Origin: an uncultured virus (IMG/VR IMGVR_UViG_3300008952_000017) | Taxonomy: Duplodnaviria; Heunggongvirae; Uroviricota; Caudoviricetes | Strand: one strand, 5' to 3' | IMG/VR virus record: IMGVR_UViG_3300008952_000017 | Length of the DNA: 64,000 nucleotides | Part shown: positions 46,001 through 62,963 of the stretch, piece by piece | How positions within the stretch are numbered: position 1 is the stretch's first letter | Layout: each line of letters begins with the position of its first letter | Notes under the pieces: generated by a model | Told to the model about the DNA's origin: nothing | The model's database searches: none | Seen by the model: the letters and a program-made list of their open reading frames with translations, nothing else | Position numbers and translations under genes: made by a program

Positions 46001-47081
46001 CCCCTTTGAGCACCTCACCCTTCCCACTATACAATACATTCCAAACAGTATCCTCAGGAACGCCATCCAACTCGAGTGCTAAATGCTCTAGGAACCTTTC
46101 TCGTTTCTGCGAATCCCTAAGTGTCGATTCGGGGAACTTCTCATCATAACCATGTAGCCATTTCTGATATCGGCGCTCATACAACCTAAAACGCATCTCC
46201 TTGGCTTGTTGCCCGATAACATTAGGGCTCAAGTGCCCGATGTCTTCCATAAACGAGTACAGTTTCGCTTCATCCCTTTGGGTCCCCTCTTTTCTAGAAT
46301 CTATCTCTCCAAAATGGACAACACCTTTAGGGGCACTATACCCTGTTGGTAAATGAGTCTTCAAAACCTCTTCAGCGTGTTCATCTAGTTCCTTGTCCCT
46401 TTTCCCACAAAAGAAGGGGGATTTTGGATTGTAATACTGCTGTAAGTGGTCATAGAGTATTGGCTTACTACTATTCTCAATAAAGAGATTGAGGAGCGCA
46501 AACTCATCAGGCAATGTGGCATCATCATTGTGGCTCGCCCTATCACTCATAAGTTCCCTCAATGCAGGTAGGTTCTTCTCATGTGCCAAAGGGTACCTAC
46601 TAGACTTCAACTGGTCATGGTAGTCTTCCATCAGTTTGTTGTAAGGGGAACTAGAACCATTCCCATGACAAGCCTGTTTGGTCCCGAATTGACCACTAGG
46701 TGTACTATCCGGTATGAAAGAACGATGTGGCGTTTTACTAGTAGGTGAAGAACTCCCTCTCCTGTAAGGGTCCGTGCCCATCCCCTCTGACTCTTTACGA
46801 GGGGTAGGCGGTGGTTTCATGTCAGCATAGATAGGAGGAACATGCACTGGTGCAGATATGGCCTTTTCCCTAGGCCCATCCTTCAATCTATGGTCTACCT
46901 CTACTTCTTGCTCCTTGAGGAGGTCTTCCATCTTCTGAAGGGTACTATCCCAATCAAAGTCAAGACCATTATTGATAAGATTGTGACAAGCGAAATAAAG
47001 GGCTGCTGCGTCCTCGATATCGGACGATATTTGAAATCTAGCCTTGTTGTTTAGGAAGAAGTCTTGAGGGGATTCACGCAC
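40041..47081 (-). CDS. 2346-aa protein with C-terminal degenerate ATP-dependent DNA ligase-like domain
   Basis: About 40700-41500: WVLSSWPKGERV (motif I position), FIVDC, LLDII, VMLRDADSTYMRGESRHPKWL, LDVIVL. The order matches ligase NTase+OB, but catalytic residues are altered. Confidence 0.7.
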   Translation of the reverse strand: MRESPQDFFLNNKARFQISSDIEDAAALYFACHNLINNGLDFDWDSTLQKMEDLLKEQEVEVDHRLKDGPREKAISAPVHVPPIYADMKPPPTPRKESEGMGTDPYRRGSSSPTSKTPHRSFIPDSTPSGQFGTKQACHGNGSSSPYNKLMEDYHDQLKSSRYPLAHEKNLPALRELMSDRASHNDDATLPDEFALLNLFIENSSKPILYDHLQQYYNPKSPFFCGKRDKELDEHAEEVLKTHLPTGYSAPKGVVHFGEIDSRKEGTQRDEAKLYSFMEDIGHLSPNVIGQQAKEMRFRLYERRYQKWLHGYDEKFPESTLRDSQKRERFLEHLALELDGVPEDTVWNVLYSGKGEVLKGGYLSIANSEGYDEMRDKSKQIGNYALEHELVMLPFDDMVEFMHIFHQMAARDHAKDFMSIDEENGVSYLLPVLPEYQTKVGRRDEMKLGVHYDDGGEVISYFGDGGPGVSLVPFSPTDIYRFGKQMRVVNKDSQYNYWTSPQDVQHNERRHIIRAPEADYHKRLFARMLREAHGYSREVGSSRAGGGRDAGRVPIYKFVKNYYAGQWDDIFDVPDIPLNSMSDVHIAIDNLRELDLSASLVNKMERFVDREYYGVGAETKPFQNRRAAYLRILSPWIDALDGVDVNEHDSTTGEEKSLPSKKKMGPFYHHRVRHTTTGGLGKERQDPICIMGQRYPHEYIALEPKHTELSDIREMPKPTDKDYEAFIEGLGEEIGPEFDQVLRDQHNEKPLLNISDMRHNPKYPILSRYLEEIWPESSVSEGQLQSSHDTVGGDDTSSDEDTPWQKLDLEGLLSLALIRHTGMLTDERIKVPYGHEKLSGSLRGIRFFQLPKEVAKGSLGYIPSNRASWSNSLTVTPHESAIFIVKLQDVMNISRIIPPNQTQIDKMSKEELEQFKAWQKNVEKRLLTRKEYKVPRDVTSQVSVGKETGKFVKHRNTNHQARVNAHAKLFSAGGRFNRNTSANHPDQSGRMRLNFLQNDGVDRPFQGGDGHATSWTGGVGASFTHRREGLGKEEQNLALRKTLDHKFRASLWGMGGTVPLHYENGVTVLEHPGPFLEMLQDIDKHGIPQHFLEHGSKFFEEGSLNNFFASLAGKRGKGAKQDYGIMPGWREAVTSGSFVDEDNKEISLPEHYYYPVIRSGGQFYLELEPTTVKGEGHIFTPKNFLHEGATTPMKEHWDTAKNVVDGKSPTLLDTALFLGDDDTEAMVDLPEHLGAREWEKKHKELTESDTVAILPSCIVKRPDGTFAAIGPHPAAFAGLWSDHLLAHPKKPGLASSMREARDELIGAAKERVDQDVTSRAGGIGPDNDILYRAGVNKGDLHLMIRDEVNLFTALQHSWPLVVANAAINEYKGSELSLDEMISKFEDEHLKIGPDYPNVVKGDDHGMMEETSRRRAIAHGLREEGYHFMQGDTLDMGHRKNILLNIYSRIRGTDAEDKWKSILGDAGITIKDGAAYFDYKSASNYHDYRIRSTSTFTQRGKDSEGKEYSHPLRRVSEETMTKDVTGHDILSNYLDPASPHRHISQVLEGIGIDGEMLESLNKSIELLKKRHGLPKDLPEETSVDKNMEYIKDVGHHVERQEPLHWHKEQDKNKTSTGATHKEMKFRERGRYARLSAALKSYFRIKQATPEGQSELFSSYGPLFKKPVAGRAGGSIMNIIARDLATAKDANGNLAFPEHANTLRAWNDRLSNSEKFDMLADFFHSRGKFANVVDKKEVIRTPVKPVPIGDNVSDDGMYDISRSKLPCHPFNYNILAHFGDGESLQHHPLIANLIAGSSLDSTPMDVPESQWPPWGRFESVPAGDPNVSEILQSFDVLTDMDLIYKEDKEEGRPIPVKAMHRIFSLEDLDTFKGLSGDWVLSSWPKGERVMVSKKGKRVSAYNSEKDSISLPSVVREGVRAAHKANFIVDCLWDGEILHLLDIIKAGEEDLGNNATKDRVRHLRANFSATEEVLIPAPINTKRVDTEGLSRAVKDLFKEKGVKQVMLRDADSTYMRGESRHPKWLLMTKEHQLDVIVLDVGGACLLGVGPLLADDAKRLGNRAVKHEGDYYMDVGTITKPGLEVGQCVTIKTSNVTAKGRDNLKVFTVRGPKYLKDAETNSTDSLQTLSLLSGEKNVDVPHNVRVSKGSIHIDLPSGHVVYDTEPYGHSFIVKAIDSPNLYLETLAESQRDYWEPVAAVLLRAEIETKKAKKANVVPEPPANHDKKPKKVLKPSERLLKDPELAKQLTTALESIEGLLKEKITWTGPKGLGIDFATPVESPSGPTENTEGYNLPDHDPGHRQEKGGDCWCGAKKGEDCKQGMGHKAQDCPEFSLPGKEEDKKHIKIPVS

Positions 47082-48473: not shown

Positions 48474-50435
48474 TCATCCTGGAAGGTTTGAGTCCTTCTT
48501 ATTGTTGAGGGGGTCTGCGGCCGTCTCTTGGGCATCCCGAACAGCATCTAAGGCTTGCTCGGTTATTGTCTTCTTAGGGCCACGTTGGTTTTTCTTACTC
48601 TTGGGTGAACCGGATAATTGGGTCTCTGAACTGACTGGTGCTGGCCCTCTATCTCGCGTGCCTGTACCCTCACCCAAACCAACCGCTCCTGATTTCTCCA
48701 TTGTCATAATCTCATTACCACGTGACCTCATCCTAGGAGGTTGTCCGGCAACAGTCTGTGCTCTCATTGCCCTATCAGCACCTGGAATCATTGGGGGTGG
48801 ACCACCTGCAGCGGCTTGGTTTTGATGAGGCATGGAACTAGGAGGTATGGCTGGAGCGCCCCCTCTACGTGGCGGCATAGCGCCTGGCATTCCACTAGCA
48901 GGTGGCATCATAGGAGGAGGTGCCGCAGTTGGTGGTGGGCCGGCTCCTTCAGGGGGAGCGCTAGGAGGAGCACTACCTTGTCCCTGTGGAGCCGCGCCCA
49001 TCTGCTGCTGTGGCTCAGGTTGCTTGTAGAAGAAACGGATATCTCTACCTGCATCCTCTGTGAGTTCGGGTTGGAAGCCGAGTTGAGCCATACGTTGTGC
49101 GATATTGACCTCCATCTCATCACGGCGTAAGCGAGTGACTTCATCTTCCTCCTCATTGGGGTGAAGGGTCATCTCCCAATCATTGACCCCCATTTCCTCG
49201 AAAATACGAGGGAAAATATCTCGACTATACAACTTCTGACCGAACTCAACTGCACGATTGGTGACAAGAATCTGCATGCCTTCATTGTTGAGGCCACCAC
49301 CCTTACCACTATCCATCATAAATATGTTTGACACACCGTAAAAGGCTGCTATTCGCATACGCAATTCATCACGAACTGGACCATACTGCATCTCATCTAA
49401 AGTGTCCATGAAACGCACGAACTCCACACGCCCCCTTCCGGTCGCTGATTCAATACCAACTTTGGGAATGTAGTTCGGGTCACGTTCCATCTTCTCTTCA
49501 GCGCCCTTCCAAAAAGAGGCTGTAGACTGGATATTGTCAGTAGTGATAGCGAGGACACCACGTGGAATCCTACGCTTCTGATATGCTAGATACATGTAAT
49601 TGTCCATAGCAGACAATGTCATGGCTTGTCGCCACATTGTAGCGACTGGACTCCTACCATAGAGTTTGGAAGGTTGATACTTAGAAATATGCACTACTTC
49701 TCCTTCAATGTAGTATTGGGTCTTACCTGAGCCAGCAGTGTTGATGAAATGAACATCTTGAAGTTCTAAGTTGCAAACCTCACACTTCTTCTCATCTCCT
49801 ATGAAGGGTTGAGTCTTATCCCTATGCACAGGGCAAATGAGATACCTACCTCCTCTCACTCCTCTCTTGTCGGCAACTATACGCATGAAGGTCGGGTCAC
49901 CACGAACTAACTCCTTTACCCGAAATAACTCAATTTCATTACTCTCCTTATTGATGTAGTACTCCTTCAAAAGGACAATGAATCCATCATCGACTATGTC
50001 CATATCCCATTCTACCTCTCTTAGGACATCAGTGAAAGATTGGTCCATGCCATTACGTTGTTTGATGAACCAGCGCGGGTATAGGATTTCATCAGCATTG
50101 GGGGTGTCGAAGTCAGTACCCCCACACATATGGCATTCCTTCACCTCGTGTTGATACTCCTCTTCACATTGCGAACATTTGAACTGAAACTTCTTCTTCC
50201 AATAATGACCTCTACGGAATATCTCCTGGCAAAGGGTATTGATGGTGGTCCTGAGAATAATACTCTCCTGCACTGTGGCATACAAAGCAGGTATGCTAAC
50301 ACCTTGTACTAAGACAGGTTCCTGTATGCCAGCCTTCCATAGAGGCATTATTGGCTCGGGAGTACTCTTGCGTCTGAAGGGGCTAGTTAACCTCTCAATG
50401 AATCGGGCTACTGGGCCAGTATCTTCTGCCATCAA
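48474..50435 (-). CDS. Portal protein with two Zn-ribbon inserts and Pro-rich tail
   Basis: EVVHI, LYGRSP, IPRGVL and RIAAFYGVSNIFM portal motifs, downstream of the terminase. CSQC..CHMC and CPVH..CEVC inserts. Confidence 0.85.
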   Translation of the reverse strand: MMAEDTGPVARFIERLTSPFRRKSTPEPIMPLWKAGIQEPVLVQGVSIPALYATVQESIILRTTINTLCQEIFRRGHYWKKKFQFKCSQCEEEYQHEVKECHMCGGTDFDTPNADEILYPRWFIKQRNGMDQSFTDVLREVEWDMDIVDDGFIVLLKEYYINKESNEIELFRVKELVRGDPTFMRIVADKRGVRGGRYLICPVHRDKTQPFIGDEKKCEVCNLELQDVHFINTAGSGKTQYYIEGEVVHISKYQPSKLYGRSPVATMWRQAMTLSAMDNYMYLAYQKRRIPRGVLAITTDNIQSTASFWKGAEEKMERDPNYIPKVGIESATGRGRVEFVRFMDTLDEMQYGPVRDELRMRIAAFYGVSNIFMMDSGKGGGLNNEGMQILVTNRAVEFGQKLYSRDIFPRIFEEMGVNDWEMTLHPNEEEDEVTRLRRDEMEVNIAQRMAQLGFQPELTEDAGRDIRFFYKQPEPQQQMGAAPQGQGSAPPSAPPEGAGPPPTAAPPPMMPPASGMPGAMPPRRGGAPAIPPSSMPHQNQAAAGGPPPMIPGADRAMRAQTVAGQPPRMRSRGNEIMTMEKSGAVGLGEGTGTRDRGPAPVSSETQLSGSPKSKKNQRGPKKTITEQALDAVRDAQETAADPLNNKKDSNLPG

Positions 50436-51859
50436 ATCACCTCAGACCCTATCGCGTCGGGGTCCTTTGAATCCCACGAGAGGACCTCTTGTTCATCAAC
50501 GTTCCACTCATTAAGGAGTTCTTCTGCTTTAGCATCCTTCCAATTCTCCCACTTGACCAAGCGGTATAACTCATCACGGCGCTTGACAATCGAGTCGCCG
50601 TTCTGTCCTCTCAAAGAAAGCAATTCCAACACGTGGCGTGCTTGGTCCTTCTTCAATCTTAGATGGGGGTAGGTCCCTTTGAGGAGTTTAGTGATATCAG
50701 CCTTGCTGTAAAACTGCAGTCTATGCTGACTCCTCTTACTACTCTTGTGAACCTTTAGGTCAAGTGCGAGGACACCACACCCCACCATATCATACAGATT
50801 CTCACAATGCACTCTACCCCTATCACCAGTAGCCACGAAACCAGCACGAGGTTCCCCTGTCTTACTGATAGTGATATAACCATCAGCATCAAGGAATCCG
50901 GCGGCATAAGCCCATGGGTCTTTAACCATCAATAGATTAGTGTCACCCTGCTTCTCCCAAGAACCGGCGTGTTTGTAGATATCGAAATCGGGACCGTACG
51001 TCTTCAGTAATGCACCCAATTGTTGCACAGAAGGAAGGCCAGTACTACGACCATCCCTCTCAGTCATGTGAGTGTGCATAGTCCGACTGTCCATAGGACC
51101 ATTGTAATCCAATAAGGCTTGAGCCATTATTAGGGACTCACTCTCTGCCTTTGTTAACTTAGCAGACTGATGGAGGGTGTGAGACCACATATCACGTGCG
51201 TCTTTCTTCATCTTAGAGGCGTCTGCCCATAATCGCAATTGCTCCTCATTGAAATCCCCATCTATCTGTGATAACTTAGTGAGAATACCGTTAGAATCCT
51301 CCCATTGGTTACACGCTTGAATGAGAGATACTTTCCTACGTTTAGAATGTTTGAGTAATGCTCTCAAATCCCTGTCATTAAGATTCATGCCTTTAATAGC
51401 AGATAGGTGGTCTTCTGCCCAAGGAATACTGGCTAAACCATTCTCTACCTCTTCAGTCTTCGCAATACGAATAGCCATAATTGCATCGTCAATATCATCC
51501 CTGTATTGCTTGTGGACTCTCCTCTTGAGACGTAAGTCCTTGACCACAGCAGAGGCTGATTTACCAAAAGACTCCTCGAACCAGCCAGCCAGTTTGATAC
51601 TATCTTCCTGCTCCTTGAGTTTTCTCCTCCTCTCCTCCTCCTTGGGAGTTTCCTGCTCAGAGGCTGCAGAGGTACCTTCTCCCAATACACCAGCCCCTGA
51701 GTTAGGAGTAGGCGCGTTGTCTCCAAATACTACTCCCCCAACACTTGTTTTGAGGAGAGGGTGCTGTTTCAGTTGCCTAATGACCCACGCCCTTTCAGGG
51801 TCTAACTCATTAGTCTCAGCATCGAAATCATCACCAATTAGAGTACTAGCCCAAGTCAA
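50432..51859 (-). CDS. Protein with C-terminal LAGLIDADG endonuclease-like domain
   Basis: YAAGFLDADGYITI...YPHLRLKKDQA motif, preceded by about 310 aa of helical N-terminus. Confidence 0.8.
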   Translation of the reverse strand: MTWASTLIGDDFDAETNELDPERAWVIRQLKQHPLLKTSVGGVVFGDNAPTPNSGAGVLGEGTSAASEQETPKEEERRRKLKEQEDSIKLAGWFEESFGKSASAVVKDLRLKRRVHKQYRDDIDDAIMAIRIAKTEEVENGLASIPWAEDHLSAIKGMNLNDRDLRALLKHSKRRKVSLIQACNQWEDSNGILTKLSQIDGDFNEEQLRLWADASKMKKDARDMWSHTLHQSAKLTKAESESLIMAQALLDYNGPMDSRTMHTHMTERDGRSTGLPSVQQLGALLKTYGPDFDIYKHAGSWEKQGDTNLLMVKDPWAYAAGFLDADGYITISKTGEPRAGFVATGDRGRVHCENLYDMVGCGVLALDLKVHKSSKRSQHRLQFYSKADITKLLKGTYPHLRLKKDQARHVLELLSLRGQNGDSIVKRRDELYRLVKWENWKDAKAEELLNEWNVDEQEVLSWDSKDPDAIGSEVI

Positions 51860-53289
51860 TCTATCAACCCCGCCATTAAAGTGTCCAAGTCAATGATTCT
51901 CTCACGGAACTCAGTAGTAGACCAATTAGCCAGTGCTAATGCTATTGCGAAATCGTCATGGCGGGCAATACTGTCTAGTTTACCAGTCTTGCTCATACCG
52001 AACATTATGAGTTCATGCTCTAATTGACTAATCACCTCACGAGACCTCTCATCTCCCCATGGTAAACGCATCTGCTCTCGCTCAAAACGCAATACCAAGC
52101 CCATAAGGAGACTCTCTCTCCTCTGCTTAGTGCTGATAAATGTCTTAATAGGTAGGTCTGTGTCTGCTCTCAATTCTGTAGCAAATACACGCTGGAAATG
52201 GTTGGCCTCAAGTTCTATTACATCTGGACGGAACTTGTTATTCAATCGCTGTATCTCAATAATCTGTGTACGAAAATCCATACCCTTACGACGAACCACA
52301 TGCACCAATTCTAGTAACTCAGGGCTGTCTGAAGGGCGACGCAACACAAGCATTACCGTGTAATCGGCTTGACGGTCGGATGATATCGCTGGGTCCCAAC
52401 CTATGAAATACTGACTATCATCATCCTCATGCCTTCTTTCTATGAGAGTAAGATATGGGTCTTTACAGGCATTTAGAACAGTGGAAGGGAAAAGGCTGGA
52501 CATATCATCCATAGGCTCACAGAGATATTCACGAGTGAAGGCTATGGCTGGCATATCCATCCTTCGAGCGTCCAGTGCCTCTAATGACCATCGCCATGGC
52601 CAAAGAGGTTCACCATTCTCCTTAATTGCAGGGTATGTCTCTACCTTGTATCCATCCCTCCTCTCCAACTCTGTATACAAATCAGTAGGAGTAAACGGTG
52701 TCCCCACAATGCACAGTTGAGATGTATGGTGCACAGTAGGAACTAGAACTTCATAGAACCAAGAGGCTACACGCTGCAATTCAGTGTCGGTAGTCCCCCA
52801 AAGAATATCATCGAGAAGAACAAGGTCAGGGTGAGCACCACGAACACCACCACCTACAGACTTAGCATTGATACGAGAACCATTTGTGAAACCAAAGAAA
52901 GTCTTGGACCAAGCATCCTTATCTTTCATCTTGGATAGCATAGGACTACCATCTATCAAATCATTGAGATTTCTCATGTGACGTATAGATTGGTCTAGAC
53001 TGTGACTGAAAATCATAGTATCAAGTTTAGGAGTGAATATGACCTTCCAAAGAACATAGCCAAGAAACAAGGTAGATTTCCCATGGTCGCGAGCCGCTTT
53101 GACACAATAGCGATTATGAGTGGAAAGGTTGTGATACCATTTGGCGTGGTGGTCGGCCAATTGCCATCCTAGAATCTCCTCGAAGAAGAACTTGAAGTCT
53201 TTTTTTGACATCTCCCAGTCGATGTCCTCAATGACCTCAGCGGAAACTGCTGGAGTGGCCATTCTCAAACCCCCTTGAGGATACCCCAC
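51856..53289 (-). CDS. terL: Terminase large subunit (start may be ATG 53262)
   Basis: Walker A ARDHGKST, Walker B RGAHPDLVLLDD, VGTP, FTREYLCE, nuclease GWDPA...DYT and HDDFAIALALA. Confidence 0.95.
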   Translation of the reverse strand: MGYPQGGLRMATPAVSAEVIEDIDWEMSKKDFKFFFEEILGWQLADHHAKWYHNLSTHNRYCVKAARDHGKSTLFLGYVLWKVIFTPKLDTMIFSHSLDQSIRHMRNLNDLIDGSPMLSKMKDKDAWSKTFFGFTNGSRINAKSVGGGVRGAHPDLVLLDDILWGTTDTELQRVASWFYEVLVPTVHHTSQLCIVGTPFTPTDLYTELERRDGYKVETYPAIKENGEPLWPWRWSLEALDARRMDMPAIAFTREYLCEPMDDMSSLFPSTVLNACKDPYLTLIERRHEDDDSQYFIGWDPAISSDRQADYTVMLVLRRPSDSPELLELVHVVRRKGMDFRTQIIEIQRLNNKFRPDVIELEANHFQRVFATELRADTDLPIKTFISTKQRRESLLMGLVLRFEREQMRLPWGDERSREVISQLEHELIMFGMSKTGKLDSIARHDDFAIALALANWSTTEFRERIIDLDTLMAGLID

Positions 53290-54927: not shown

Positions 54928-56817
54928 TTACCACCTCAAGGCTACCTTGACCGCTTTCACCACATATGGCTCCACTTTCAAGCGTTGCGCTACAACATCC
55001 CAATCACCTACACTTTGCTGGATTAGATGCAAATCCCTATTCTCTAAGGAGAAAGACTCGCATAATATATCACAGTCGATTGGGTCCTCTAAGTGATAGC
55101 GCCTCTTAGTAGGCAAAGACTTAATCACCATCATATCCATCCTAGCGTCTGCTGATTGTAGATGCTCCATCAAATCAACCAATGTATCACGAGAGGTACG
55201 CACATCTAAATTAGTGCCTGGGTCCCAGTCAGGGTCCCTAGGTGGCAAGGCTTGAGAGCCTGAATAGCCCAGCACCCCTGTCCTTCTCTGCCCACGACCA
55301 CTAGGACCAGCCGTTGGTCCATCAATCATCCAATTCCCAGTTGGGATTCTTGGAGAGTTTATTCTTCTCCCATCAGAGAGACGTGCATCAGGGTCATCCG
55401 ACACTACAGGTTGAACCATTCTACTTGGCGCCACTGGTGTAATATCACTAGAATCAATATAATTTGTATTACCCGAATGAGCAGTCATGAACTTGGTCTT
55501 AACTGCTCTTCCCGCCGACCATCCATCATCAGCCCCTCTCAATCTTCCAAATCGTCGACCTAAATCGGGGTTCTCTAACAAGGTAGTAAGGTACAAAGCG
55601 TCTTGAAGAGCACCTCTAGCAGCCGAATGATTCTTTGTTTTCAAATTAGAAAGATAGTGGGTGACATCAATGTTACCCGCATTGTACTGAAAATGCTGCT
55701 CTAGGTCATGCTGCTCATTGGTAGAGAGGGAAGGGTCATCCGTTCTACGCAGGCCCAAAACTTGCCTCATATCATTGAGGAGTTTATTCGCCTTACTGTG
55801 GCTCCTAGTAGCAGACCGCCCCACTGAAGACTCGTGTAAGACCTGCATTAGTGGGCTCCTTGCGAAATTGGCGATTTCTGCTTCAGATGCAGGTGTTCTA
55901 CCCCCATTGGTGAGTATAACCTTAGCGTAGGCCATCCTATTCCTCATTGTAGCATTACTCTCACCAGTACTCCCATCAAACATCTTACCGCCAGTGGGAT
56001 GGAACCAAGCAGGATGCAAACTACCCATAACTGAACGCAGTTCATGAGTTCCATGCAACTTATCCTTCCCACGACTTGAAAATGGATTCTGATTAGAATA
56101 ATGTGATTTCCACACTCTGGAGCCATTCCCGTGTGCATCTCTGTGTATCACCATACCATCCGGTTTGATATGATTACCACTAGCCAAAGTATGGTATGGT
56201 TCAGCGCCAAACTCCTGCTTGAATAATCCGAGCATGATAGGGAGTGCTCCGAAGAAACCCGACTCTGTCATATGCCCATGCTGGGCATGGTCTGCTTGAC
56301 TGGGGTTGTACATGACCAACTTCCCTTGCTTGTTACGAATGCGAATCTGCTCAGGTTTCCTCTGACTGATTTTCTCTTGGTACTCAGGGGCGTAAGCATG
56401 TCCTTGTAACTCAGGGTGTAGGGTCTTCTCATCACTAGGGTCCAAATACACTCCTTCTTTAGGATACATATTCCTCTTGTCTCTCTGACTAGAATTGAAT
56501 ATCCTAGTTGCCTCATTGAGCATTTTACGTAGGGTCCTACGCAACTCTTTGGGATTAGTAGCATTGGGGTGCCCGTCTTTCTCAAGACCACGGGCTAGTT
56601 CCTCTACTATGGTCTTCATGAGGTCTCTTGTCTCATACCCATCCTCTTCTGAAAATGGCTGTTTAGTAATTGGATGGATGTGGAACGGGTTTTCTCCATC
56701 AGGGAAGTATTGCGTCATTTCCAAAGGGGAAAGCACCCGATGCATGCCCCCAGCATCCTTAGCGTGAATACCATCAAGGAGAACACCCCCTCCCTTGAGA
56801 ATGAGAATACCCTTCAC
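54928..56817 (-). CDS. Hypothetical protein (possible internal virion protein, C-terminal HTH-like region)
   Basis: Long ORF. GTG 56817 (GTGA overlap, GGAGGGGA SD) is preferred over ATG 56865. Confidence 0.7.
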   Translation of the reverse strand: MKGILILKGGGVLLDGIHAKDAGGMHRVLSPLEMTQYFPDGENPFHIHPITKQPFSEEDGYETRDLMKTIVEELARGLEKDGHPNATNPKELRRTLRKMLNEATRIFNSSQRDKRNMYPKEGVYLDPSDEKTLHPELQGHAYAPEYQEKISQRKPEQIRIRNKQGKLVMYNPSQADHAQHGHMTESGFFGALPIMLGLFKQEFGAEPYHTLASGNHIKPDGMVIHRDAHGNGSRVWKSHYSNQNPFSSRGKDKLHGTHELRSVMGSLHPAWFHPTGGKMFDGSTGESNATMRNRMAYAKVILTNGGRTPASEAEIANFARSPLMQVLHESSVGRSATRSHSKANKLLNDMRQVLGLRRTDDPSLSTNEQHDLEQHFQYNAGNIDVTHYLSNLKTKNHSAARGALQDALYLTTLLENPDLGRRFGRLRGADDGWSAGRAVKTKFMTAHSGNTNYIDSSDITPVAPSRMVQPVVSDDPDARLSDGRRINSPRIPTGNWMIDGPTAGPSGRGQRRTGVLGYSGSQALPPRDPDWDPGTNLDVRTSRDTLVDLMEHLQSADARMDMMVIKSLPTKRRYHLEDPIDCDILCESFSLENRDLHLIQQSVGDWDVVAQRLKVEPYVVKAVKVALRW

Positions 56818-58151
56818 TGGTGTCCCCTCCGAGGCAACAATAGACCGATGGGATGAGCGCCCCAATATCGGGGGTCATCATCGGGGTCAACTTCTGTGGC
56901 TCCGGTGGGATGGCTCGTCGTCTGTCTGTGTGCGTTAGGGGTAGGCCTCTCATCATCATGCTCGGAATCTTCCAAACCTGATTTAGTAAGAGCACCCGAA
57001 CGCAACAGTCTCCTCATTTCTCGGACGAGCCATTTGAACTCAGTTAGGTCAGCGTCACTCAATTTGGCTTTCTTGAGTAGGTATTCGTATTCCTCTAATC
57101 TATCAAAAGATGCTAAAACGGAGGCTGATTGGAAGCCCGTCATACCATCAGTTGGCCCCCCTCCACCTCCTGATATATCGTGTCCACCAAGGGTTCTTGC
57201 TACTCCAGGGCGATTGATTTGCCTCCCAGTCGCGGGTGTCAAATCACTAGCGGTCTGATGGGGGTGTTCTATTCTAGGCCCCTTTGGTGGAGGTCTCATT
57301 ACATTCTCATAACCTTGCATACTAGAGAGATTGTAGGGACTAGTGTGAGTAGGGACATCCCTAGCGGCTTGGCTAGTCTCAACACCTGCCGAGACACTCC
57401 TCGGGTCAGGTGTTTGCTCCCTCTTTGTTTTACCACCTGCTTTCTGCCTCCATCCCTTAGTACGACCACCGTGACCTCGCCTCATTGCACCTTTTCTTCC
57501 TGCTGTGGTTCTCTCTGAAATGGTCTTCCTAGTCTCAGTGTAACCTTTCGGGTTCCTAGTACCCCTCACCATATTCTTGTCACCATAGATGCGAGAGAGA
57601 GATGTCTGCCCCATCTTACCCCTTCTCTTTGCAGTCTCCTTTCTCCTACTTCTAGTCCTCAAAGAGTGGATGTCTTCTGACTTACCATGCCTGCCCTTCA
57701 CCCCTTTGTGAGAACTACTCTTCTTCTTGCGAATAATATCAAGGCTCTCTTCCATAGAATGACCAGTCATGATGTTTACAGGATTACCACCCATCACAGA
57801 ACCACCACCGGTTTTAGCACCACTCGCAATATCCAAGGGATATCCAGTACTACTAGCGGGTCCTGTCATCTCGGAGAGTTTCTCATCATTCCTTTGATTG
57901 TCTCCTCGGGGCTTCTTCTTGTTAACCACTTTCACAGAGAGGTGCTGCAAACCAGCGATTTTCTTGTCGCGGTCTTCTTTCTCTTTGAGTTTCTTCTCTT
58001 CGAGTTTCTGCTTACTATCAGCATCATCCCTACCCAAATTACGGTCTTCTTCCATGAACTCAGGTGCTTCACGAGGGTTGAACCTCAAGCCTGCAGTACT
58101 GCCTTTATTGCCTTCACCGGCTTTATGCAAATCTTCACCAGCCATGCTCAC
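56814..58151 (-). CDS. Highly basic, disordered protein (possible DNA-binding core protein)
   Basis: 445 aa with a central K/R/G/S-rich tract, GGAGGGTGA SD near the start. Confidence 0.7.
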   Translation of the reverse strand: MSMAGEDLHKAGEGNKGSTAGLRFNPREAPEFMEEDRNLGRDDADSKQKLEEKKLKEKEDRDKKIAGLQHLSVKVVNKKKPRGDNQRNDEKLSEMTGPASSTGYPLDIASGAKTGGGSVMGGNPVNIMTGHSMEESLDIIRKKKSSSHKGVKGRHGKSEDIHSLRTRSRRKETAKRRGKMGQTSLSRIYGDKNMVRGTRNPKGYTETRKTISERTTAGRKGAMRRGHGGRTKGWRQKAGGKTKREQTPDPRSVSAGVETSQAARDVPTHTSPYNLSSMQGYENVMRPPPKGPRIEHPHQTASDLTPATGRQINRPGVARTLGGHDISGGGGGPTDGMTGFQSASVLASFDRLEEYEYLLKKAKLSDADLTEFKWLVREMRRLLRSGALTKSGLEDSEHDDERPTPNAHRQTTSHPTGATEVDPDDDPRYWGAHPIGLLLPRRGHQ

Positions 58152-58575
58152 CCTCCGGTATGATGTGAATTGTCTTCTCTAATCTCCTAAGGATTAAAGA
58201 ATAGAATCGGATAAGTTCGGTGGGTCCAGAGAATACACTGGAGAATGACACCAACATATCCGCCACTGAGTCAAAAGCAATCGCAAAACTCCTCCTCTCA
58301 TCAAAGACATCTTCTGTATCATTGTCCATCAATGATAGGAAGAAGGACTCTAACTCATGGACTAATTCAGTGTGATACCCTCGTAATGCGGCTATATCAG
58401 GATTGAGTGGGGCTACAGCAGAATACCATCTATCAACCACTTCATGCAGGAGAGAAAGAAATACCTTCATCTCCTTGCGATGGATAGGTCTGTCTTCTGT
58501 GAGCATGCTGGATAAACGGACATCCTTGCACATCAGGCGATGTACTGGCACTGGCCAAAACTCAGGTCTATGCAT
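58135..58575 (-). CDS. Hypothetical helical protein
   Basis: 146-aa ORF overlapping both neighbours. Confidence 0.6.
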   Translation of the reverse strand: MHRPEFWPVPVHRLMCKDVRLSSMLTEDRPIHRKEMKVFLSLLHEVVDRWYSAVAPLNPDIAALRGYHTELVHELESFFLSLMDNDTEDVFDERRSFAIAFDSVADMLVSFSSVFSGPTELIRFYSLILRRLEKTIHIIPEGEHGW

Positions 58576-59254
58576 CCACTATCTCCTCCTCTTCCTCCTC
58601 TAATAGTTTGGAGCGGATACGCTTCCAAACTTCAGGAGACTCCTTAGCGAGTTCTACTTTGAGGATATTGACTGTGTCTGCTTGGATATTCTGACTAATC
58701 TCACCCACGCTATCTTGCTGGAACTTAACCATGGTGGTGAGGGTATCACGAACTTCCTTGTGTAGGCTAACGATATTCTTAACATACGCAGGGTCATTCC
58801 TATCTGCGTCCTCCAAGAAAAGGTCTAACTCACCATTGAGACGTTCAAGATTCCCTCTCATGACATCAATTTCCTTACCAGTTTGAATTGAGATGAGATT
58901 AGCCGCACTCTTCTGTACGAGAGGTTTCAAGTGATGCTTCAAGTGATGGTAGATAGTAGACTCACTGCATTGGATAATATCGGCTATTGTCTCACTGGTC
59001 ATACCGCCAGTGAAATAGGCTTGTTCAACTTCAGCACGCTCAGGGTGAGTACACACTATACAGTCACTATTCGAGCCCATGTGGAACTCTCCCATGTGAT
59101 TGCGGAAGTGGCGGTCTGTTGTACCCTCACGCCACCCTAAATCTTTGTCTAGTTGCTTGGGTATGACGCTCCCCGAAAGTAATCCTTCCTCTAAATCATC
59201 CCTATCCCCGTGCTGGCAGAAAGCACAAGATTGACGTGTAACGCGCCCGCTCAC
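58568..59254 (-). CDS. Tandem Zn-HTH protein with coiled coil, putative terminase small subunit
   Basis: Two CxxCxH...HTH...HxxxH units (CAFCQH...RHFRNH and CIVCTH...HHLKHH) followed by helices. First gene of the operon leading to terL. Confidence 0.55.
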   Translation of the reverse strand: MSGRVTRQSCAFCQHGDRDDLEEGLLSGSVIPKQLDKDLGWREGTTDRHFRNHMGEFHMGSNSDCIVCTHPERAEVEQAYFTGGMTSETIADIIQCSESTIYHHLKHHLKPLVQKSAANLISIQTGKEIDVMRGNLERLNGELDLFLEDADRNDPAYVKNIVSLHKEVRDTLTTMVKFQQDSVGEISQNIQADTVNILKVELAKESPEVWKRIRSKLLEEEEEEIVDA

Positions 59255-59259
59255 GTATT

Positions 59260-59589
59260 ATGAGGAGGGGCATACACTCTAAGCCCTTTCGTTTGGGGCG
59301 GGCGAAAAAAGTCATGGGTGTACCCATCACGAGAGACACCGCAAATGGCATAAACAAGGCAATACAAGACGTTCTCACCATGAGCCATGTGACAAAAGAG
59401 GAACAAGTAAGGAGATTAACCACCTGTGAGACTTGTGAGCACAAGAGGGGGGCGAGATGCAACCTCTGTGGTTGCTTCATCAACTACAAATCTAAACTCA
59501 AAAACAGTGAGTGTCCATTAGGAAAGTGGTCAACCGTTCTCAGCGAGACGGCGATAGACAGTTCCAGTGACGAGGGTGGCACTGAATAA
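59260..59589 (+). CDS. Cys-rich protein (DUF6171-like; true start may be ATG about 59314)
   Basis: RRLTTCETCEH....CNLCGCF...K......CPLGKW is a recurring viral Cys motif. The only credible plus-strand gene in the window. Confidence 0.7.
   Translation: MRRGIHSKPFRLGRAKKVMGVPITRDTANGINKAIQDVLTMSHVTKEEQVRRLTTCETCEHKRGARCNLCGCFINYKSKLKNSECPLGKWSTVLSETAIDSSSDEGGTE
59277..59291 (-). promoter_or_regulatory. Possible archaeal BRE/TATA (CGAAAGGGCTTAGAG) for the packaging operon
   Basis: TTAGAG at about -28 to -23 from GTG 59254 with a purine-rich BRE-like element upstream and no SD. The TATA is imperfect. Confidence 0.35.
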
Positions 59590-59775
59590 GAATGCCATCG
59601 AATACATGAGTTCGTTTTGGTCCATATCATAAGCAGCGAAGGCGATAAGCAGGAAAGCGCCTAAAGCGAGACTTATCACCTGCACCATTATCATGTCCAC
59701 TAAGGAGGATTTCTTGATTTGAGTCATATCATACATTCCGAACATTGCACTGTTAATCATATCACTTGGTGGCAT
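59530..59775 (-). CDS. Small two-TM membrane protein
   Basis: 81 aa with two hydrophobic stretches and a basic C-terminus (YRR). Last gene of the GTPase operon. Confidence 0.7.
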   Translation of the reverse strand: MPPSDMINSAMFGMYDMTQIKKSSLVDMIMVQVISLALGAFLLIAFAAYDMDQNELMYSMAFLFSATLVTGTVYRRLAENG

Positions 59776-59779
59776 TATA

Positions 59780-60409
59780 TCACGTCCTTATTCCCAAAGC
59801 GCCTCTGAAGAGACTACCAAACCCAGTACCCACGCTCTCCATCATTCCTGGATTGGCCATTGCTGCACTGAGTGCACCCGACATTAGGTTCTGTTGAACT
59901 GTGTTTAGAATTGCTTGTTGTTGCTGCATTGCTTGGTCTCTAGTCATAGTTGCAGCATTCTTGAGACTATTAGACTCCATTGTGACACTATCTGCTGTGG
60001 GGGCATTCTCAAAATTACTGAAATCAAATGCTAAATTGCCGTCCTCAGTCTCTGCTATAGCGACATTCTTGAGAACATCAACAGTTGCAAGAGCACTGAC
60101 TTTGTAAAGTAAAGATACTAACATCTCCATATTTGGGCCAGCAAGCCATCTATCTACTGGCACGCTCGTCTGTATGAGAGCAGCCATCACTTCCAAATCG
60201 CTAGGTGGTGCTAACTCAGTAGCAGGATTCAAACCCATCGCTCCCATCATACCTGCCCCCAATTGTTGATAGGGGTCACCATAGCCAGCATGCCCGAAAG
60301 TATTTTGAGCGTATCCATTGACTGCGGGGAGCATCTGCTGATTGTTGGGTAAACCCAAAGACAGCGCCCCTGTTTGTGGTTGAGGTGCACTATTAAATCC
60401 GAGTGTCAC
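59780..60409 (-). CDS. Hypothetical protein, Q/G/M-rich, with C-terminal amphipathic helix
   Basis: 209 aa coupled to neighbours, ends in VGTGFGSLFRGALG. Confidence 0.7.
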   Translation of the reverse strand: MTLGFNSAPQPQTGALSLGLPNNQQMLPAVNGYAQNTFGHAGYGDPYQQLGAGMMGAMGLNPATELAPPSDLEVMAALIQTSVPVDRWLAGPNMEMLVSLLYKVSALATVDVLKNVAIAETEDGNLAFDFSNFENAPTADSVTMESNSLKNAATMTRDQAMQQQQAILNTVQQNLMSGALSAAMANPGMMESVGTGFGSLFRGALGIRT

Positions 60410-61389
60410 TCTACCACCTCCTCCAATACCTGTTCTAAAGGCGGAGGGGCCGTTTGGCTTAACAGTTCCGAGAGACCCATAGTTGCGGATGGGGTTGGCA
60501 AATCCATATTTATTGGCGGGGCACTGATTCTCGCATCTGTAATCATTCGAGCATTACCACCCGTTTGGAACTGTCTCATATCAAATATCACTATTGTTTG
60601 CTCATTCTCACCCAGTGCATTCTTCAAACGAACTACTGGGATATTGTCCTTCTTTAGCATCTCGAAGAAGGGCTGGTAAACAGAGAGTAGAGGTGGTGTA
60701 TTATCCCTACCAGCCAATCCGGCCACAGGAACAGTAACCATGGACACCCCTTTGTTCAACCTACTCTTGAGACTACTAGTACTACCCCCTTCCTCTTCTT
60801 GTTCCGCTCTCTCCCACTTAGTTAGAAGATGATAAAGATGAAGATGCTCAGGACAATAAGTGGCTCTTAGAATACGACCACCAGTTACTCTCTCACGTGC
60901 TTGAAAGGCTTGAGGGTTACCTGTGACTGGGTCCTTGAAATACAACTCCCACAAGGATTTGCCACTTTCCTCATCCTTAATCATCTCATACACATTGCCG
61001 GCTGCTTGAATTAACTCATCCACATCGCACCCCTCAATACAACAGCGGGTGGCATCTCCCACAAACTGATACTTACCACCGAACCAATACCTTCGTGGTG
61101 AGAATATGCTTCTCCTAGTAGGACTCAGTAATTTGTAGGCTTGACGAATATCGGACCTTCTAGCCTTCTTGGGATTCCCATGGTTAGACGGATAGAAATT
61201 AACCTTAGGTATCTCGATGCTTCGTTGCAAAGCAGCGTCTTGCATGTAGGTCTGCGCTTGAGCGAGACTTTGCAACTGCGCTAAAGGCACCTGTGAGTTC
61301 GCTGCTAGATGCCTCATTTCTTGACTTGTCTGAGTAGACAAGGGCTGTGCTTGCGTTTGTACAAAGGGGTTCACCTGATTCATTACCAT
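60406..61389 (-). CDS. Hypothetical protein with split Zn-binding motif
   Basis: 327 aa starting 4 nt after the GTPase stop. CCIEGC ... YCPEH motifs and a Q-rich N-terminus. Confidence 0.7.
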   Translation of the reverse strand: MVMNQVNPFVQTQAQPLSTQTSQEMRHLAANSQVPLAQLQSLAQAQTYMQDAALQRSIEIPKVNFYPSNHGNPKKARRSDIRQAYKLLSPTRRSIFSPRRYWFGGKYQFVGDATRCCIEGCDVDELIQAAGNVYEMIKDEESGKSLWELYFKDPVTGNPQAFQARERVTGGRILRATYCPEHLHLYHLLTKWERAEQEEEGGSTSSLKSRLNKGVSMVTVPVAGLAGRDNTPPLLSVYQPFFEMLKKDNIPVVRLKNALGENEQTIVIFDMRQFQTGGNARMITDARISAPPINMDLPTPSATMGLSELLSQTAPPPLEQVLEEVVE

Positions 61390-61393
61390 TATA

Positions 61394-62113
61394 TCACCAA
61401 CTGAGCATCTCCAGTAAGGTCTGCTCGACGTTCCAGCCTATCTTCGTAGCCATCATGTTGACTCGGCAGGGGATGCCTGCTTTTTGGAGTTTCACCATAG
61501 AAGGTCGATAAGGGTCGAATATATCGTGTTCCCGCAATCTCTTCGACTGCCAAAGTATGTTGGCCTTGTTGTCCCACCAAAGGTCTGCCTTGTTGGCTAT
61601 AACCCACACTTGTGAGGGAGCATAATTCCGGCCTTTCCACCATGTCTTAAAACTCCTATATCTCCATTTCCTGTCGATTAAGGAATCGACGAGAAAGTCC
61701 AAACCGCCCACTGCGTCGATTATATCGCCGTTGCTCCCAGCCTTCCCTCTGTGGTCCACCATGAACACGACTATCTCTACCTGTCTTTCGACCATGTCGT
61801 CTATCCAAAGATTCCAAAATCTCTGCTCTCCGCCTATGTCCGCTGAATGAACTACCCTCTTTTCCCCGTGCCATCTCACTCGCTTCCTTGTGGCCTTGGG
61901 GAGTACGTGACCCCCTCCTATCAATCGAGCATCGTGAACGGTCCTCTCTTCCACGTCTGCCATCTCGCCTGGCGTTGTCATGAACTGGTCTAGAGTAGTC
62001 TTCCCAACCATCGTGGGGCCGTATATACCAATCCTTCTCGGTTTTAGGAAGTTGTATAATTCCTTGCCATACACTACAGCCCCCATTAGGATTGAGCCAC
62101 TTAATCCTACCAT
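61394..62113 (-). CDS. Arf/Arl-like small GTPase
   Basis: G1 GPTMVGKTT, G2 ERT, G3 DIGGEQRFWNLW, VVFMVD, G4 ANKAD, G5 MATKIG.NV, N-terminal hydrophobic/amphipathic helix. Confidence 0.85.
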   Translation of the reverse strand: MVGLSGSILMGAVVYGKELYNFLKPRRIGIYGPTMVGKTTLDQFMTTPGEMADVEERTVHDARLIGGGHVLPKATRKRVRWHGEKRVVHSADIGGEQRFWNLWIDDMVERQVEIVVFMVDHRGKAGSNGDIIDAVGGLDFLVDSLIDRKWRYRSFKTWWKGRNYAPSQVWVIANKADLWWDNKANILWQSKRLREHDIFDPYRPSMVKLQKAGIPCRVNMMATKIGWNVEQTLLEMLSW

Positions 62114-62121
62114 TCACACCA

Positions 62122-62376
62122 TCACCCTCTTATGGAATCTATCCTTGCTTGACACCAGTCAATGAACCAATCCACCGTCCTGTCCCAAACACTCACCTCA
62201 AATTCCATCTCAACCCAAGATGTGATGAATACAGCAGCGCCAGTAAATAGTAAGGTGCGGGCCCAACCCCAACCACGTTCGTAGTAGTTATCTAGAGTAT
62301 TCTGCCAATGCAAAGCCTTCAATGTCGCTTCAGTTGCATCGTCACTTGGAGTATGAAATAGCCACCCCATAGTCAA
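62122..62376 (-). CDS. Small Trp-rich single-TM membrane protein
   Basis: 84 aa with hydrophobic segment TLLFTGAAVFITSWV and an amphipathic C-terminal helix. Confidence 0.7.
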   Translation of the reverse strand: MTMGWLFHTPSDDATEATLKALHWQNTLDNYYERGWGWARTLLFTGAAVFITSWVEMEFEVSVWDRTVDWFIDWCQARIDSIRG

Positions 62377-62963
62377 CCCTTCTTGGCGAACTTACCGGTC
62401 TTGTCACGAGCATCGTGCTTATTACTCTGACTCACCGCCGTCGTTACACCTAAGTCAATACCGCCACCGGTTTGAGCCCCATGGCTAGGGGGTGAGTTTG
62501 ATAGGTCCATGCCCTGCACCAAATAATCAGCGGCTCCATGAATGTCTCCCTGTAACAACTCACTCTCCTTCTGATATTCCAACAATTGGAGTTGTCTCAT
62601 GAATTGGGCCTCTTGGAGTCTCATCTCTACCTCCATTTGTTTGTTAGCCATCTGTTGTTGCATTCCCTGCATGCGCCGTGACCTCTCCCTATCCATGCGA
62701 GCGAATGAAGCCTTGTGGTCTAAAGATTGCTGCATGAGTAATTTGTAGAGGACGAAAGACATCCCCTGTAAAGTAAAAGCGGCCATTGCGTAAGTGAAAG
62801 CATTAGTTTGCACATCACCTGCGGACTTCAACCAAAGACCGGCATCAAATACGGCAATAGTCGCCCCCACTAGTATTGAAACAAAGGTAATGAGGCCTAA
62901 GACTCTAATCTCATCGGCGTTTGTATCACTCGGCTGCATAGGGGGCATGTTAGACATAGACAT
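62373..62963 (-). CDS. Two-TM membrane protein with Gln-rich coiled coil
   Basis: 196 aa with two hydrophobic helices then RMDRERSRRMQGMQQQM... coiled coil. First gene after the AT-rich gap. Confidence 0.75.
   Translation of the reverse strand: MSMSNMPPMQPSDTNADEIRVLGLITFVSILVGATIAVFDAGLWLKSAGDVQTNAFTYAMAAFTLQGMSFVLYKLLMQQSLDHKASFARMDRERSRRMQGMQQQMANKQMEVEMRLQEAQFMRQLQLLEYQKESELLQGDIHGAADYLVQGMDLSNSPPSHGAQTGGGIDLGVTTAVSQSNKHDARDKTGKFAKKG

Follow-up and report, generated by a model that had tools for sequence, protein, structure and literature searches.

Why a tailed virus of archaea should carry a small GTPase with Arf-like motifs, and how near to the Arf family that protein stands, is the question raised by an open reading frame (ORF) on the minus strand, close to the end of a 64,000-nucleotide stretch of DNA from an uncultured virus (IMG/VR record IMGVR_UViG_3300008952_000017; the whole stretch is hereafter called the window). 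A sequence-only reading of the locus had seen in the product an Arf-type switch II with a Gln-to-Glu change and an N-terminal helix lacking the myristoylation glycine. We find that the gene is strongly conserved and belongs to the core of magrovirus-type viruses, tailed viruses of marine archaea with genomes of roughly 100 kb. The virus family forms a divergent Arf-like lineage of its own; strictly speaking, it was not filed within the Arf family, because it fails the Pfam Arf cut-off and does not keep the catalytic Gln. As to function, we give a probability of about one half to the reading that the protein is a membrane-seated GTP switch, which would gather or regulate the proteins encoded around it for a membrane step late in infection.

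The GTPase gene and its motifs

Judged by its predicted structure, the product is a stand-alone Ras-superfamily G domain with G1 (GxxxxGKT), G2 (Thr58), G3 (DxGG), G4 (NKxD) and G5 intact; G1, G3 and G4 follow each other in order and the model has the six-strand, five-helix fold. The gene and its motifs are listed below. Residue n begins at position 62113-3(n-1), and invariance refers to an alignment of 45 sequences.

61394..62113, minus: small GTPase gene, a conserved ORF of 239 amino acids (aa) with a Ras-superfamily fold
62020-61994, minus: G1 or P-loop, GPTMVGKTT, residues 32-40; G32, G37, K38, T39 and T40 invariant
61961..61975, minus: TPGEM, residues 47-51, in the stretch from alpha1 to switch I; invariant; model pLDDT below 50
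61940..61942, minus: Thr58 (ERT.H), the likely G2 threonine; invariant
61805..61840, minus: G3 or switch II, DIGGEQRFWNLW, residues 92-103; D92, G95, F99, W100 and W103 invariant
61583..61594, minus: G4, NKAD, residues 174-177; N174, K175 and D177 invariant
61427..61450, minus: G5, ATKIGWNV, residues 222-229; I225, G226, W227 and V229 invariant, A222 and T223 nearly so

All the motifs on which the sequence-only reading relied were found in place in this ORF, among them VFMVD (residues 116-120). Besides T47-P-G-E-M51 and T58, the residues H60, K77 and R78 are also invariant. The Arf switch II motif is DxGGQ, in which the Gly-Gly is followed by a Trp 11 residues past the Asp, and this DxGG...W spacing is common to Arf, Sar1 and G-alpha. 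As had been claimed, both the Gly-Gly and the Trp at +11 (W103) are retained in the virus protein. Thr58 was taken as the G2 threonine because it lies 20 residues past Lys38 and its column is nearly invariant in a wide alignment. Thr75 (LPKAT) was considered for the same role and dropped, its column being variable in the wide alignment, where that of Thr58 is kept.

The ORF is a genuine gene under purifying selection. At E <= 0.01 it is matched by 443 proteins, mostly of 236-241 aa and from marine metagenomes, on contigs of up to ~117 kb, and relatives are present at 257 viral loci. Comparison with four close relatives gave 83-93 synonymous and 31-36 non-synonymous codon differences. Contigs from RNA-labelled libraries of three studies overlap parts of the ORF at 95-100% identity, which does not by itself prove transcription. 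These contigs fall on 60575-62855 and none on 58500-60460; such gaps are uninformative, and DNA may be present in the libraries.

The virus

By its gene content, the window is assigned to a magrovirus-type archaeal tailed virus. All its long ORFs lie on the minus strand, and Pfam recognised the following packaging and head genes, several of the matches being weak.

51856-53289, minus: terminase large subunit
48474-50435, minus: portal
38606-40003, minus: prohead protease
37458-38603, minus: major capsid protein

The major capsid protein matches archaeal tailed viruses only (11 of 11 records in the phage collection), which supports the earlier reading of the DNA as that of an archaeal virus, and is 33-34% identical to those of HVTV-1, HCTV-1 and HCTV-5. 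Three complete relatives have genomes of 105-109 kb, flanked by direct terminal repeats in one case, and all three carry genes for PolB and a chaperonin. Magroviruses, which are assigned to Marine Group II archaea, have a terminally redundant genome of ~100 kb with archaeal replication genes and a chaperonin, and a halovirus-like head module with a major capsid protein about 33% identical to that of haloarchaeal siphoviruses, according to the available part of the paper that describes them (PMC5434244). What speaks against the assignment is MCM, which that paper lists and which did not exceed the Pfam cut-off in any of the three complete relatives. The terminase large subunit was also tried for host inference and set aside as uninformative, since it is ~26% identical to Bacteroides phages only.

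Relationship to the Arf family

AlphaFold2, run on the 45-sequence alignment, gave a model (pLDDT 75, pTM 0.75) with strands at residues 26-32, 75-81, 84-94, 114-119, 168-173 and 216-220, a helix at 3-23, the usual helices and extra helices at 155-162, 176-179 and 182-189 around G4. A Foldseek search of the PDB returned small GTPases at E about 5e-7. VIA was used both to re-rank Foldseek's best 1000 chains and over 48,161 representatives (VIA wide). On re-ranking, 15 of the first 17 rows were named Arf-family chains (Z 15.7-14.4, 15-21% identity), including Arl8b (Z 15.7, root-mean-square deviation 2.6 over 162 residues, 20% identity), Arl8/Arl10B (15.4), Arf1, Arf6, Arl1-3, HodArfR1 and GerdArfR1. 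Of the other two rows, one was a Rag-like protein and the other came from a COPI coat entry; the first Rab stood at rank 18 (Z 14.4). VIA wide gave Z scores of 14.9 for an Asgard Rag-like protein, 14.7 and 14.5 for Arf6 (19-21% identity), 14.6 (2fh5_B) and 13.9 for SRbeta, and 14.0 for both Sar1 and a mimivirus Rab (5xc5). Because this spread is small, the modelled fold alone only leans towards Arf.

Four sequence profiles were compared with the PDB: A1 (45 close relatives), A4 (28 virus sequences including divergent groups), A7 (12 sequences of the divergent virus groups only) and A3 (A4 plus three bridging sequences). In each case an Arf-family chain, 8OUN, came first. With A1 its E-value was 0.29, which is not significant. 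With A4 it was 1.4e-6, followed by Arl8A/B (about 4e-4 to 9e-4) and Rab33B (2e-3); with A7, 2.5e-5, followed by Arl8A (9e-4), KRas (3e-3) and EF-Tu (5e-3); and with A3, 1.3e-9, with Arl8 at ~1e-6, Rab33B at 1.4e-5, Arl3, Arl1 and Arl5 at ~1e-4 and KRas at 4e-4. RecA chains also scored, through the P-loop only. The accessible part of the corresponding preprint describes 8OUN as GerdArfR1 in full length, an Arf-related GTPase from Asgard archaea whose crystals included the N-terminal amphipathic helix (bioRxiv 10.1101/2024.02.28.582541). The truncated form of GerdArfR1 (8OUM) scored below it, and the best stretch of the A4 match comprises the N-terminal helix along with the P-loop.

Pfam gave weak matches in the 45 members, all below the cut-offs: Arf in 13, Roc in 9 (best E = 0.003), Ras in 2, MMR_HSR1 in 2, Gtr1_RagA in 1 and SRPRB in 1. 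The window protein is not over the gathering cut-off of Pfam Arf (PF00025, 22.3 bits), and the best Arf match among the 45 relatives (E 0.0063) also stays below it.

A search with the A1 profile in 1.84 billion representative proteins yielded no more than 87 matches at E <= 0.001, many of them fragments. Two far but full-length relatives, P0205 (1.4e-4) and P0206 (7.9e-4), exceed the Pfam Arf cut-off, scoring 36.2 and 25.5 bits; PF09439, the SRbeta family, also scores on P0205. The relatives of these two proteins are all PF00025-positive and ~225-243 aa long, and those of the P0205 group include a large family from metagenome-assembled genomes (MAGs) of Anaerolineae/Chloroflexota, on contigs of up to 640 kb, one member of which is labelled 'ADP-ribosylation factor-like protein' by its source. 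Other source labels found on relatives are 'GTPase SAR1 family protein' and 'signal recognition particle receptor subunit beta'. The bacterial family, represented by 25 sequences (A9), has proteins of ~234 aa that pass Pfam Arf and carry a long N-terminal extension and invariant DVGGE and PTAxGG motifs; its best-scoring PDB matches are G-alpha and Arf1. In the ESM Atlas, bacterial Arf-labelled clusters are listed after the viral ones. A search for P0249 in viral contigs gave no confirmed relative.

The virus profiles were then aligned by hhalign with A9, with A8 (the P0205 group plus bacterial samples) and with a control of 24 bacterial PF00071 ORFs from the 30 best loci, a mixed set, six of the loci having yielded no ORF, in which the first row looks like a eukaryote-type Rho. 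A4 aligned with A8 at 99.6% (E 8e-24, score 159), with A9 at 98.1% (E 8e-14, score 95, 186 columns) and with the control at 97.1% (E 6e-11, score 76). The values for A9 and the control were 98.5% (E 1.9e-15, score 105) and 97.9% (4.4e-13, 89) with A7, and 97.3% (E 2.7e-11, score 79) and 94.9% (4.7e-08, 57) with A1. Since the scores with A8 and A9 exceed those with the control, the virus family is nearer to Arf-labelled groups than to Ras-labelled bacterial GTPases, by a moderate margin. An unrooted maximum-likelihood tree of 52 sequences, with long branches, split 27 virus rows from the 25 others with a support of 99/96. In the sampled Pseudomonadota genomes, the best PF00071 match (169.5 bits) was a eukaryote-type Rho-like protein with DTAGQ on a contig of ~3 kb, which contamination may explain.

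Taken by profile and fold ranking, the virus protein leans towards the Arf family, with Asgard ArfR1 and Arl8 as its nearest named members, and uncultured and bacterial proteins positive for Pfam Arf stand nearer still. Several observations weigh against this placement. Searched alone, the window GTPase matched no family in Pfam, NCBIfam or PHROGs, nor any PDB sequence, even at E <= 10; PADLOC and tblastn over phages gave nothing useful either. The switch I part of the model is uncertain (pLDDT 47-57 for residues 41-60), the top rows of Foldseek are Rho, Rab and Rheb and not Arf, and in VIA wide Arf6, SRbeta, Sar1, the Rag-like protein and the mimivirus Rab lie within 1 Z. In the profile searches Arf scores only ~3-10 bits above Rab and Ras, in the fold comparison about 1 Z unit above them, and A9 exceeds the mixed control by only ~16-22 hhalign score units. 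The Arf-type signature read from the sequence alone is supported by these rankings, and the protein should still not be filed as a member of the family.

The same Foldseek order and VIA ties would also be expected of a generic, deep-branching Ras-superfamily GTPase without a special tie to Arf, in which the Gly-Gly, the Trp and the N-terminal helix would be retained or convergent features. Weak Roc matches are nearly as frequent as weak Arf matches in the 45 members (9 vs 13), and the alignment with the bacterial Ras-family control still reaches 97.1%. Such a protein could be a soluble switch in virion assembly or packaging, a role proposed because the GTPase gene lies upstream of, and on the same strand as, the genes for the terminase, portal, protease and major capsid protein. 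Against this explanation, an Arf-family chain is first in all four profile searches and 15 of the 17 top re-ranked rows belong to that family; the nearest relatives pass Pfam Arf and not Ras, and a role at the membrane suits the constant membrane-protein neighbours described below better than a soluble role does. We regard a generic soluble switch as doubtful, though worth keeping in view.

Two prokaryotic groups were considered and excluded. MglA lacks the G3 Asp and pairs with MglB; the virus protein is not an MglA because it keeps this Asp, D92 being invariant in the family. The Roc domain precedes COR in large multidomain Roco proteins; the virus protein is not a Roc because it stands alone, with 239 aa in the window and 209-254 aa in the 120 listed relatives (search range 131-419 aa), and Roc matches were weak. 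The 60 best PDB rows of the A3, A4 and A7 searches held no MglA or Roc chain, which means a lower score only.

The residue at the catalytic position

In the window protein, Glu96 follows the Gly-Gly and occupies the place of the catalytic Gln, and residue 97 is a Gln. The change to Glu is therefore present in the window as had been read; it is a polymorphism of the family and not a fixed trait. Among the 118 of the 120 best relatives that match the G3 pattern, the residue after the Gly-Gly is Glu in 62, Gln in 40, Asp in 13 and His in 3. The pairs at residues 96-97 are EE (42), QQ (37), DE (12), ED (7), EQ (5), ER (5) and others. In the tree, the window protein (GGEQ) is sister to P0005 (GGQQ), and the Glu96 codon, GAG, is one base off the Gln codon CAG. 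Distant virus groups have Gln, His or Ala at this place, and Phe is also found in distant relatives. In the bacterial Arf-labelled family DVGGE occurs in 25 of 25 sequences, and 19 of the 24 control PF00071 GTPases have Glu after the G3 Gly.

Because the residue flips between Glu, Gln, Asp and His within the family and because Glu is frequent in bacterial GTPases, Glu96 looks like an ordinary prokaryotic state and not like the marker of a special mechanism. The suggestion that it signals altered hydrolysis thus loses its ground. The following Gln, which had been pointed out as well, is not conserved: 70 of the 118 relatives have no Gln at either place. Dependence on a GAP and lipid binding, both put forward from the sequence, stay conjectural.

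The variability of this position (Glu, Gln, Asp and His in the core, Ala or Phe in distant relatives) and the want of a conserved Gln next to residue 96 might be taken to suggest a scaffold that binds nucleotide and hydrolyses it hardly or not at all, that is, a pseudo-GTPase or GTP-locked protein whose on-state would be set by expression. However, all 118 pattern-matched core relatives have a polar residue capable of holding water, the motifs G1 to G5 are in other respects complete and invariant, and Glu is the rule in the sampled bacterial small GTPases. A scaffold of this kind is accordingly held to be most improbable.

N-terminal helix and inserts

Four features set the rest of the protein apart.

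62045..62107, minus: N-terminal hydrophobic helix, residues 3-23 of the model; aligns with the N-terminal helix of GerdArfR1
61892..61939, minus: insert between G2 and strand beta2, residues 59-74; gaps against GerdArfR1; low model confidence
61628..61669, minus: basic-aromatic insert KWRYRSFKTWWKGR, residues 149-162, between alpha3 and beta5, with the helix 155-162
61526..61582, minus: helical insert after G4, residues 178-196; helices 176-179 and 182-189 precede alpha4

Both statements made on the N-terminus hold: a helix is predicted there, and it has no myristoylation Gly, residue 2 being Val (Gly is found at position 2 in 1 of 45 aligned relatives). The mean hydrophobicity of the helix is 0.6-0.7, its hydrophobic moment 0.2-0.36 and its KD-19 maximum 1.17, the usual KD-19 level for a membrane span being 1.6.

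The inserts that had been noticed are genuine, as seen from the HMMER gaps against GerdArfR1, the absence of a counterpart of the basic-aromatic patch in the bacterial family and the extra helices of the model. From Thr58 to Asp92 there are 34 residues, and the HMMER fit to GerdArfR1 requires gaps of 10, 2 and 5 between G2 and G3. Residues 146-167 contain on average 8.9 Lys plus Arg, 4.4 Phe, Trp or Tyr and 0.4 Asp plus Glu (of 22) in the 45 relatives, and in hhalign this patch is unmatched in the nearest bacterial family. The insert after G4 needs a 10-column gap against the bacterial family and sits where Rho GTPases bear theirs.

With its high mean hydrophobicity and low moment, the Gly-rich N-terminus could alternatively be a short anchor in place of a switchable helix, and the protein a permanently membrane-anchored GTPase like SRbeta, which holds SRalpha at the membrane; the GTP form would then hold a viral partner. 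SRbeta has a His at the catalytic place, as do some of the virus relatives. The SRbeta scores in VIA wide (14.6 and 13.9), the receptor-subunit label on relatives and the PF09439 match of P0205 point the same way. Against such an anchor, the KD-19 maximum of 1.17 is below 1.6 and the hydrophobic run is ~15 residues long; the best profile match takes in the amphipathic helix of GerdArfR1, and no known SRX/longin fold was seen in the one neighbour examined, the 327-aa protein encoded next downstream. An SRbeta-like function is considered unlikely.

The conserved gene block

The GTPase gene (80/80) belongs to a block of genes whose presence, in the same gene order, was counted in 80 related viral loci. 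Its other members are as follows.

62373..62963, minus: 196-aa upstream gene, 77/80; membrane helix (KD-19 2.52 at residue 21) and a Gln/Met-rich helical part
62122..62376, minus: 84-aa upstream gene, 79/80; KD-19 maximum 1.22, weakly hydrophobic
60406..61389, minus: 327-aa Cys/His protein, downstream, 80/80
59780..60409, minus: 209-aa gene with a Gln/Asn/Gly-rich N-terminal half, 80/80
59530..59775, minus: 81-aa small membrane protein, 69/80; KD-19 2.48 at residue 28
58568..59254, minus: 228-aa helix-turn-helix protein at the downstream edge of the block, 80/80; weak matches to HTH_20 and GerE, below cut-off

Besides the GTPase, the block thus encodes a Cys/His protein, a protein rich in Gln and no fewer than two clear small membrane proteins, and it lies upstream of the packaging and head genes. 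Its best-kept gene is that of the GTPase, with 57-87% identity in the ten loci listed, the neighbours going down to 30-45% in distant ones. The genes are closely packed: the 84-aa gene ends 8 bases before the GTPase start, and the 327-aa gene starts 4 bases past the GTPase stop. The 196-aa and 209-aa genes have no family in Pfam or PHROGs.

The 327-aa protein has an invariant C116, C179, H182, H184 and H187 (YC179-PEH-LH-L.H187), which probably form a metal site. It matched no Pfam family and nothing over 0.84 in the ESM Atlas, and its model (pLDDT 63) gave no Foldseek match at E <= 0.001 and no VIA match at Z >= 5. The predicted complex of the GTPase with the 327-aa protein scored 0.03 (mark 0.32), which says nothing either way.

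A 445-aa ORF beyond the downstream edge of the block (56814-58151, minus) is very rich in Lys, Arg and Gly, has no family and is present in 61 of the 80 related loci; it overlaps the ORF at 54928-56865 by 52 bases.

The membrane-switch reading that we favour would work as follows. The GTPase would bind GTP and Mg2+ and act as a nucleotide switch. Its N-terminal helix, the KPRR that follows the helix and the basic-aromatic patch would tether it to the host cytoplasmic membrane at its inner face, where the GTP form may gather or regulate the co-encoded block proteins in the late phase. The membrane step served in this way could be, for instance, exit, assembly at the membrane or a remodelling of it. 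Hydrolysis would probably proceed via the polar residue after the Gly-Gly (Glu, Gln, Asp or His) or via a partner in trans. A point against this membrane seat is the helix itself, which with its moment of 0.2-0.36 is only weakly amphipathic and could be buried or bind a partner.

A bolder form of this proposal, which we regard as speculative and would not expect to hold in full, is that the whole block is a GTP-switched membrane machine that bends, breaches or organises the host membrane for magrovirus release or assembly, and that the GTPase represents, together with its DVGGE kin, an old prokaryotic Arf-like lineage outside Asgard ArfR. If true, the block would be a working counterpart, in viruses of non-Asgard archaea, of Arf with its coat or of ArvABC.

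The operon arrangement also brings to mind a host gene. According to the part of the ArvABC paper that was available (PMC10927574), ArvA is a euryarchaeal Arf-like GTPase with an N-terminal amphipathic helix, its operon comprises the downstream partner ArvB (DUF2073) and the Zn-ribbon protein ArvC (DUF2072), and ArvABC drives extracellular vesicle formation in Euryarchaeota. The virus GTPase might then be a captured and diverged host ArvA-type vesiculating GTPase, used for budding or membrane shedding; here too a further protein, of Cys/His type, is encoded 4 bases past the GTPase. However, the two genes downstream of the GTPase gave no Pfam family at E <= 0.01, so that an ArvA-type operon is not seen, and none of the neighbours matched DUF2073 or DUF2072 in Pfam. 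Among the 87 proteins found with the A1 profile in the 1.84 billion, the 15 that were scanned are all of virus type or PF00025 type. A search of 185,579 species genomes gave a single holder, a 4.8-Mb MAG titled Parvibaculum with two copies on two contigs, and 300 other genomes of its phylum had none; the probable explanation is that contigs of archaeal viruses were binned into this bacterial MAG. In the available text of the same source, the main holders of ArvA are Halobacteriota, Methanobacteriota and DPANN (PMC10927574). Capture of a host ArvA is therefore very unlikely in our view.

Comparison with known systems

Among known proteins, the virus GTPase is most like those Arf-family members that are not myristoylated, for instance Arl8 or ArfR1 (GerdArfR1, 8OUN/8OUM; HodArfR1, 8OUK). 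It shares with them the G-domain fold, the DxGG and the Trp at +11, and both the profile searches and the VIA re-ranking place them at the top. An N-terminal helix without the myristoylation Gly is also common to both, and an N-terminal amphipathic helix that binds membranes in the GTP form is a hallmark of the Arf family, as far as the accessible part of the preprint goes (bioRxiv 10.1101/2024.02.28.582541). The virus protein differs in failing Pfam Arf, in its length (239 aa vs about 180), in its three inserts (one following G2 and one on either side of G4), in the absence of a Trp before the G3 Asp, in having Glu, Gln, Asp or His for the Gln and in its only weakly amphipathic helix; it comes from a virus of non-Asgard archaea.

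The P0205 group and the bacterial family A9 resemble the virus proteins in length (about 230 aa), N-terminal extension and DxGGE..W, whereas they pass Pfam Arf, lack the basic-aromatic patch and part of the insert after G4, and are separated from the virus rows in the tree (99/96). ArvA of the ArvA-ArvB-ArvC system of Haloferax volcanii is likewise an Arf-like GTPase that has an N-terminal helix, acts on the membrane and shares its operon with a partner and a protein of Zn type, in the part of the text available (PMC10927574); ArvA is a host gene with different neighbours, and the Pfam and profile searches that were run detected no sequence tie to it. SRbeta, from the eukaryotic SRP receptor, shares an Arf-related G domain, an N-terminal hydrophobic segment and a VIA Z of 14.6; in the virus protein this segment lacks the length and the hydrophobicity of a clear span, and its setting is an archaeal virus. 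The mimivirus Rab (5xc5, VIA Z 14.0) is also a virus-encoded Ras-superfamily switch, but it is a clear Rab of a eukaryotic virus, whereas the present proteins form an orphan Arf-like family in archaeal tailed viruses.

Of the viruses that infect ocean archaea, magroviruses belong to the most abundant, and to our knowledge it is not known how tailed archaeal viruses handle the host membrane. A core, virus-only small GTPase tied to membrane proteins offers a concrete gene set for this question. The map of Arf-like GTPases beyond eukaryotes and Asgard archaea gains from it one branch carried by viruses and, in bacteria, a sister family whose Glu is fixed. The further claim of the sequence-only reading, that the protein bears on the origin of Arf, is not sustained: the closest kin are uncultured PF00025-positive and bacterial proteins, Pfam Arf is failed and the margins over Rab and Ras are small, so the family has by itself no bearing on the origin of eukaryotic Arf. 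A full-text search found no publication on the virus GTPase family, and the word 'GTPase' occurs zero times in PMC5434244, PMC10160649, PMC11706807 and PMC8651126, supplements being outside this check.

Other open reading frames of the window

Three giant ORFs, for a virus of ~100 kb, lie on the minus strand at 10741-27390 (5549 aa, about 16.6 kb), 1-7971 (at least 2657 aa, leaving the window) and 40041-47081 (2346 aa); none gave a Pfam family at E <= 0.001-0.01. Between the portal and terminase genes, a 475-aa ORF (50432-51859, minus) matches an HNH-endonuclease PHROG over residues 313-419 (E 1.4e-8). Among the tail genes, a 140-aa protein (30734-31156, minus) has a SAP domain (E 4.4e-13), a DNA-binding motif best known from eukaryotes.

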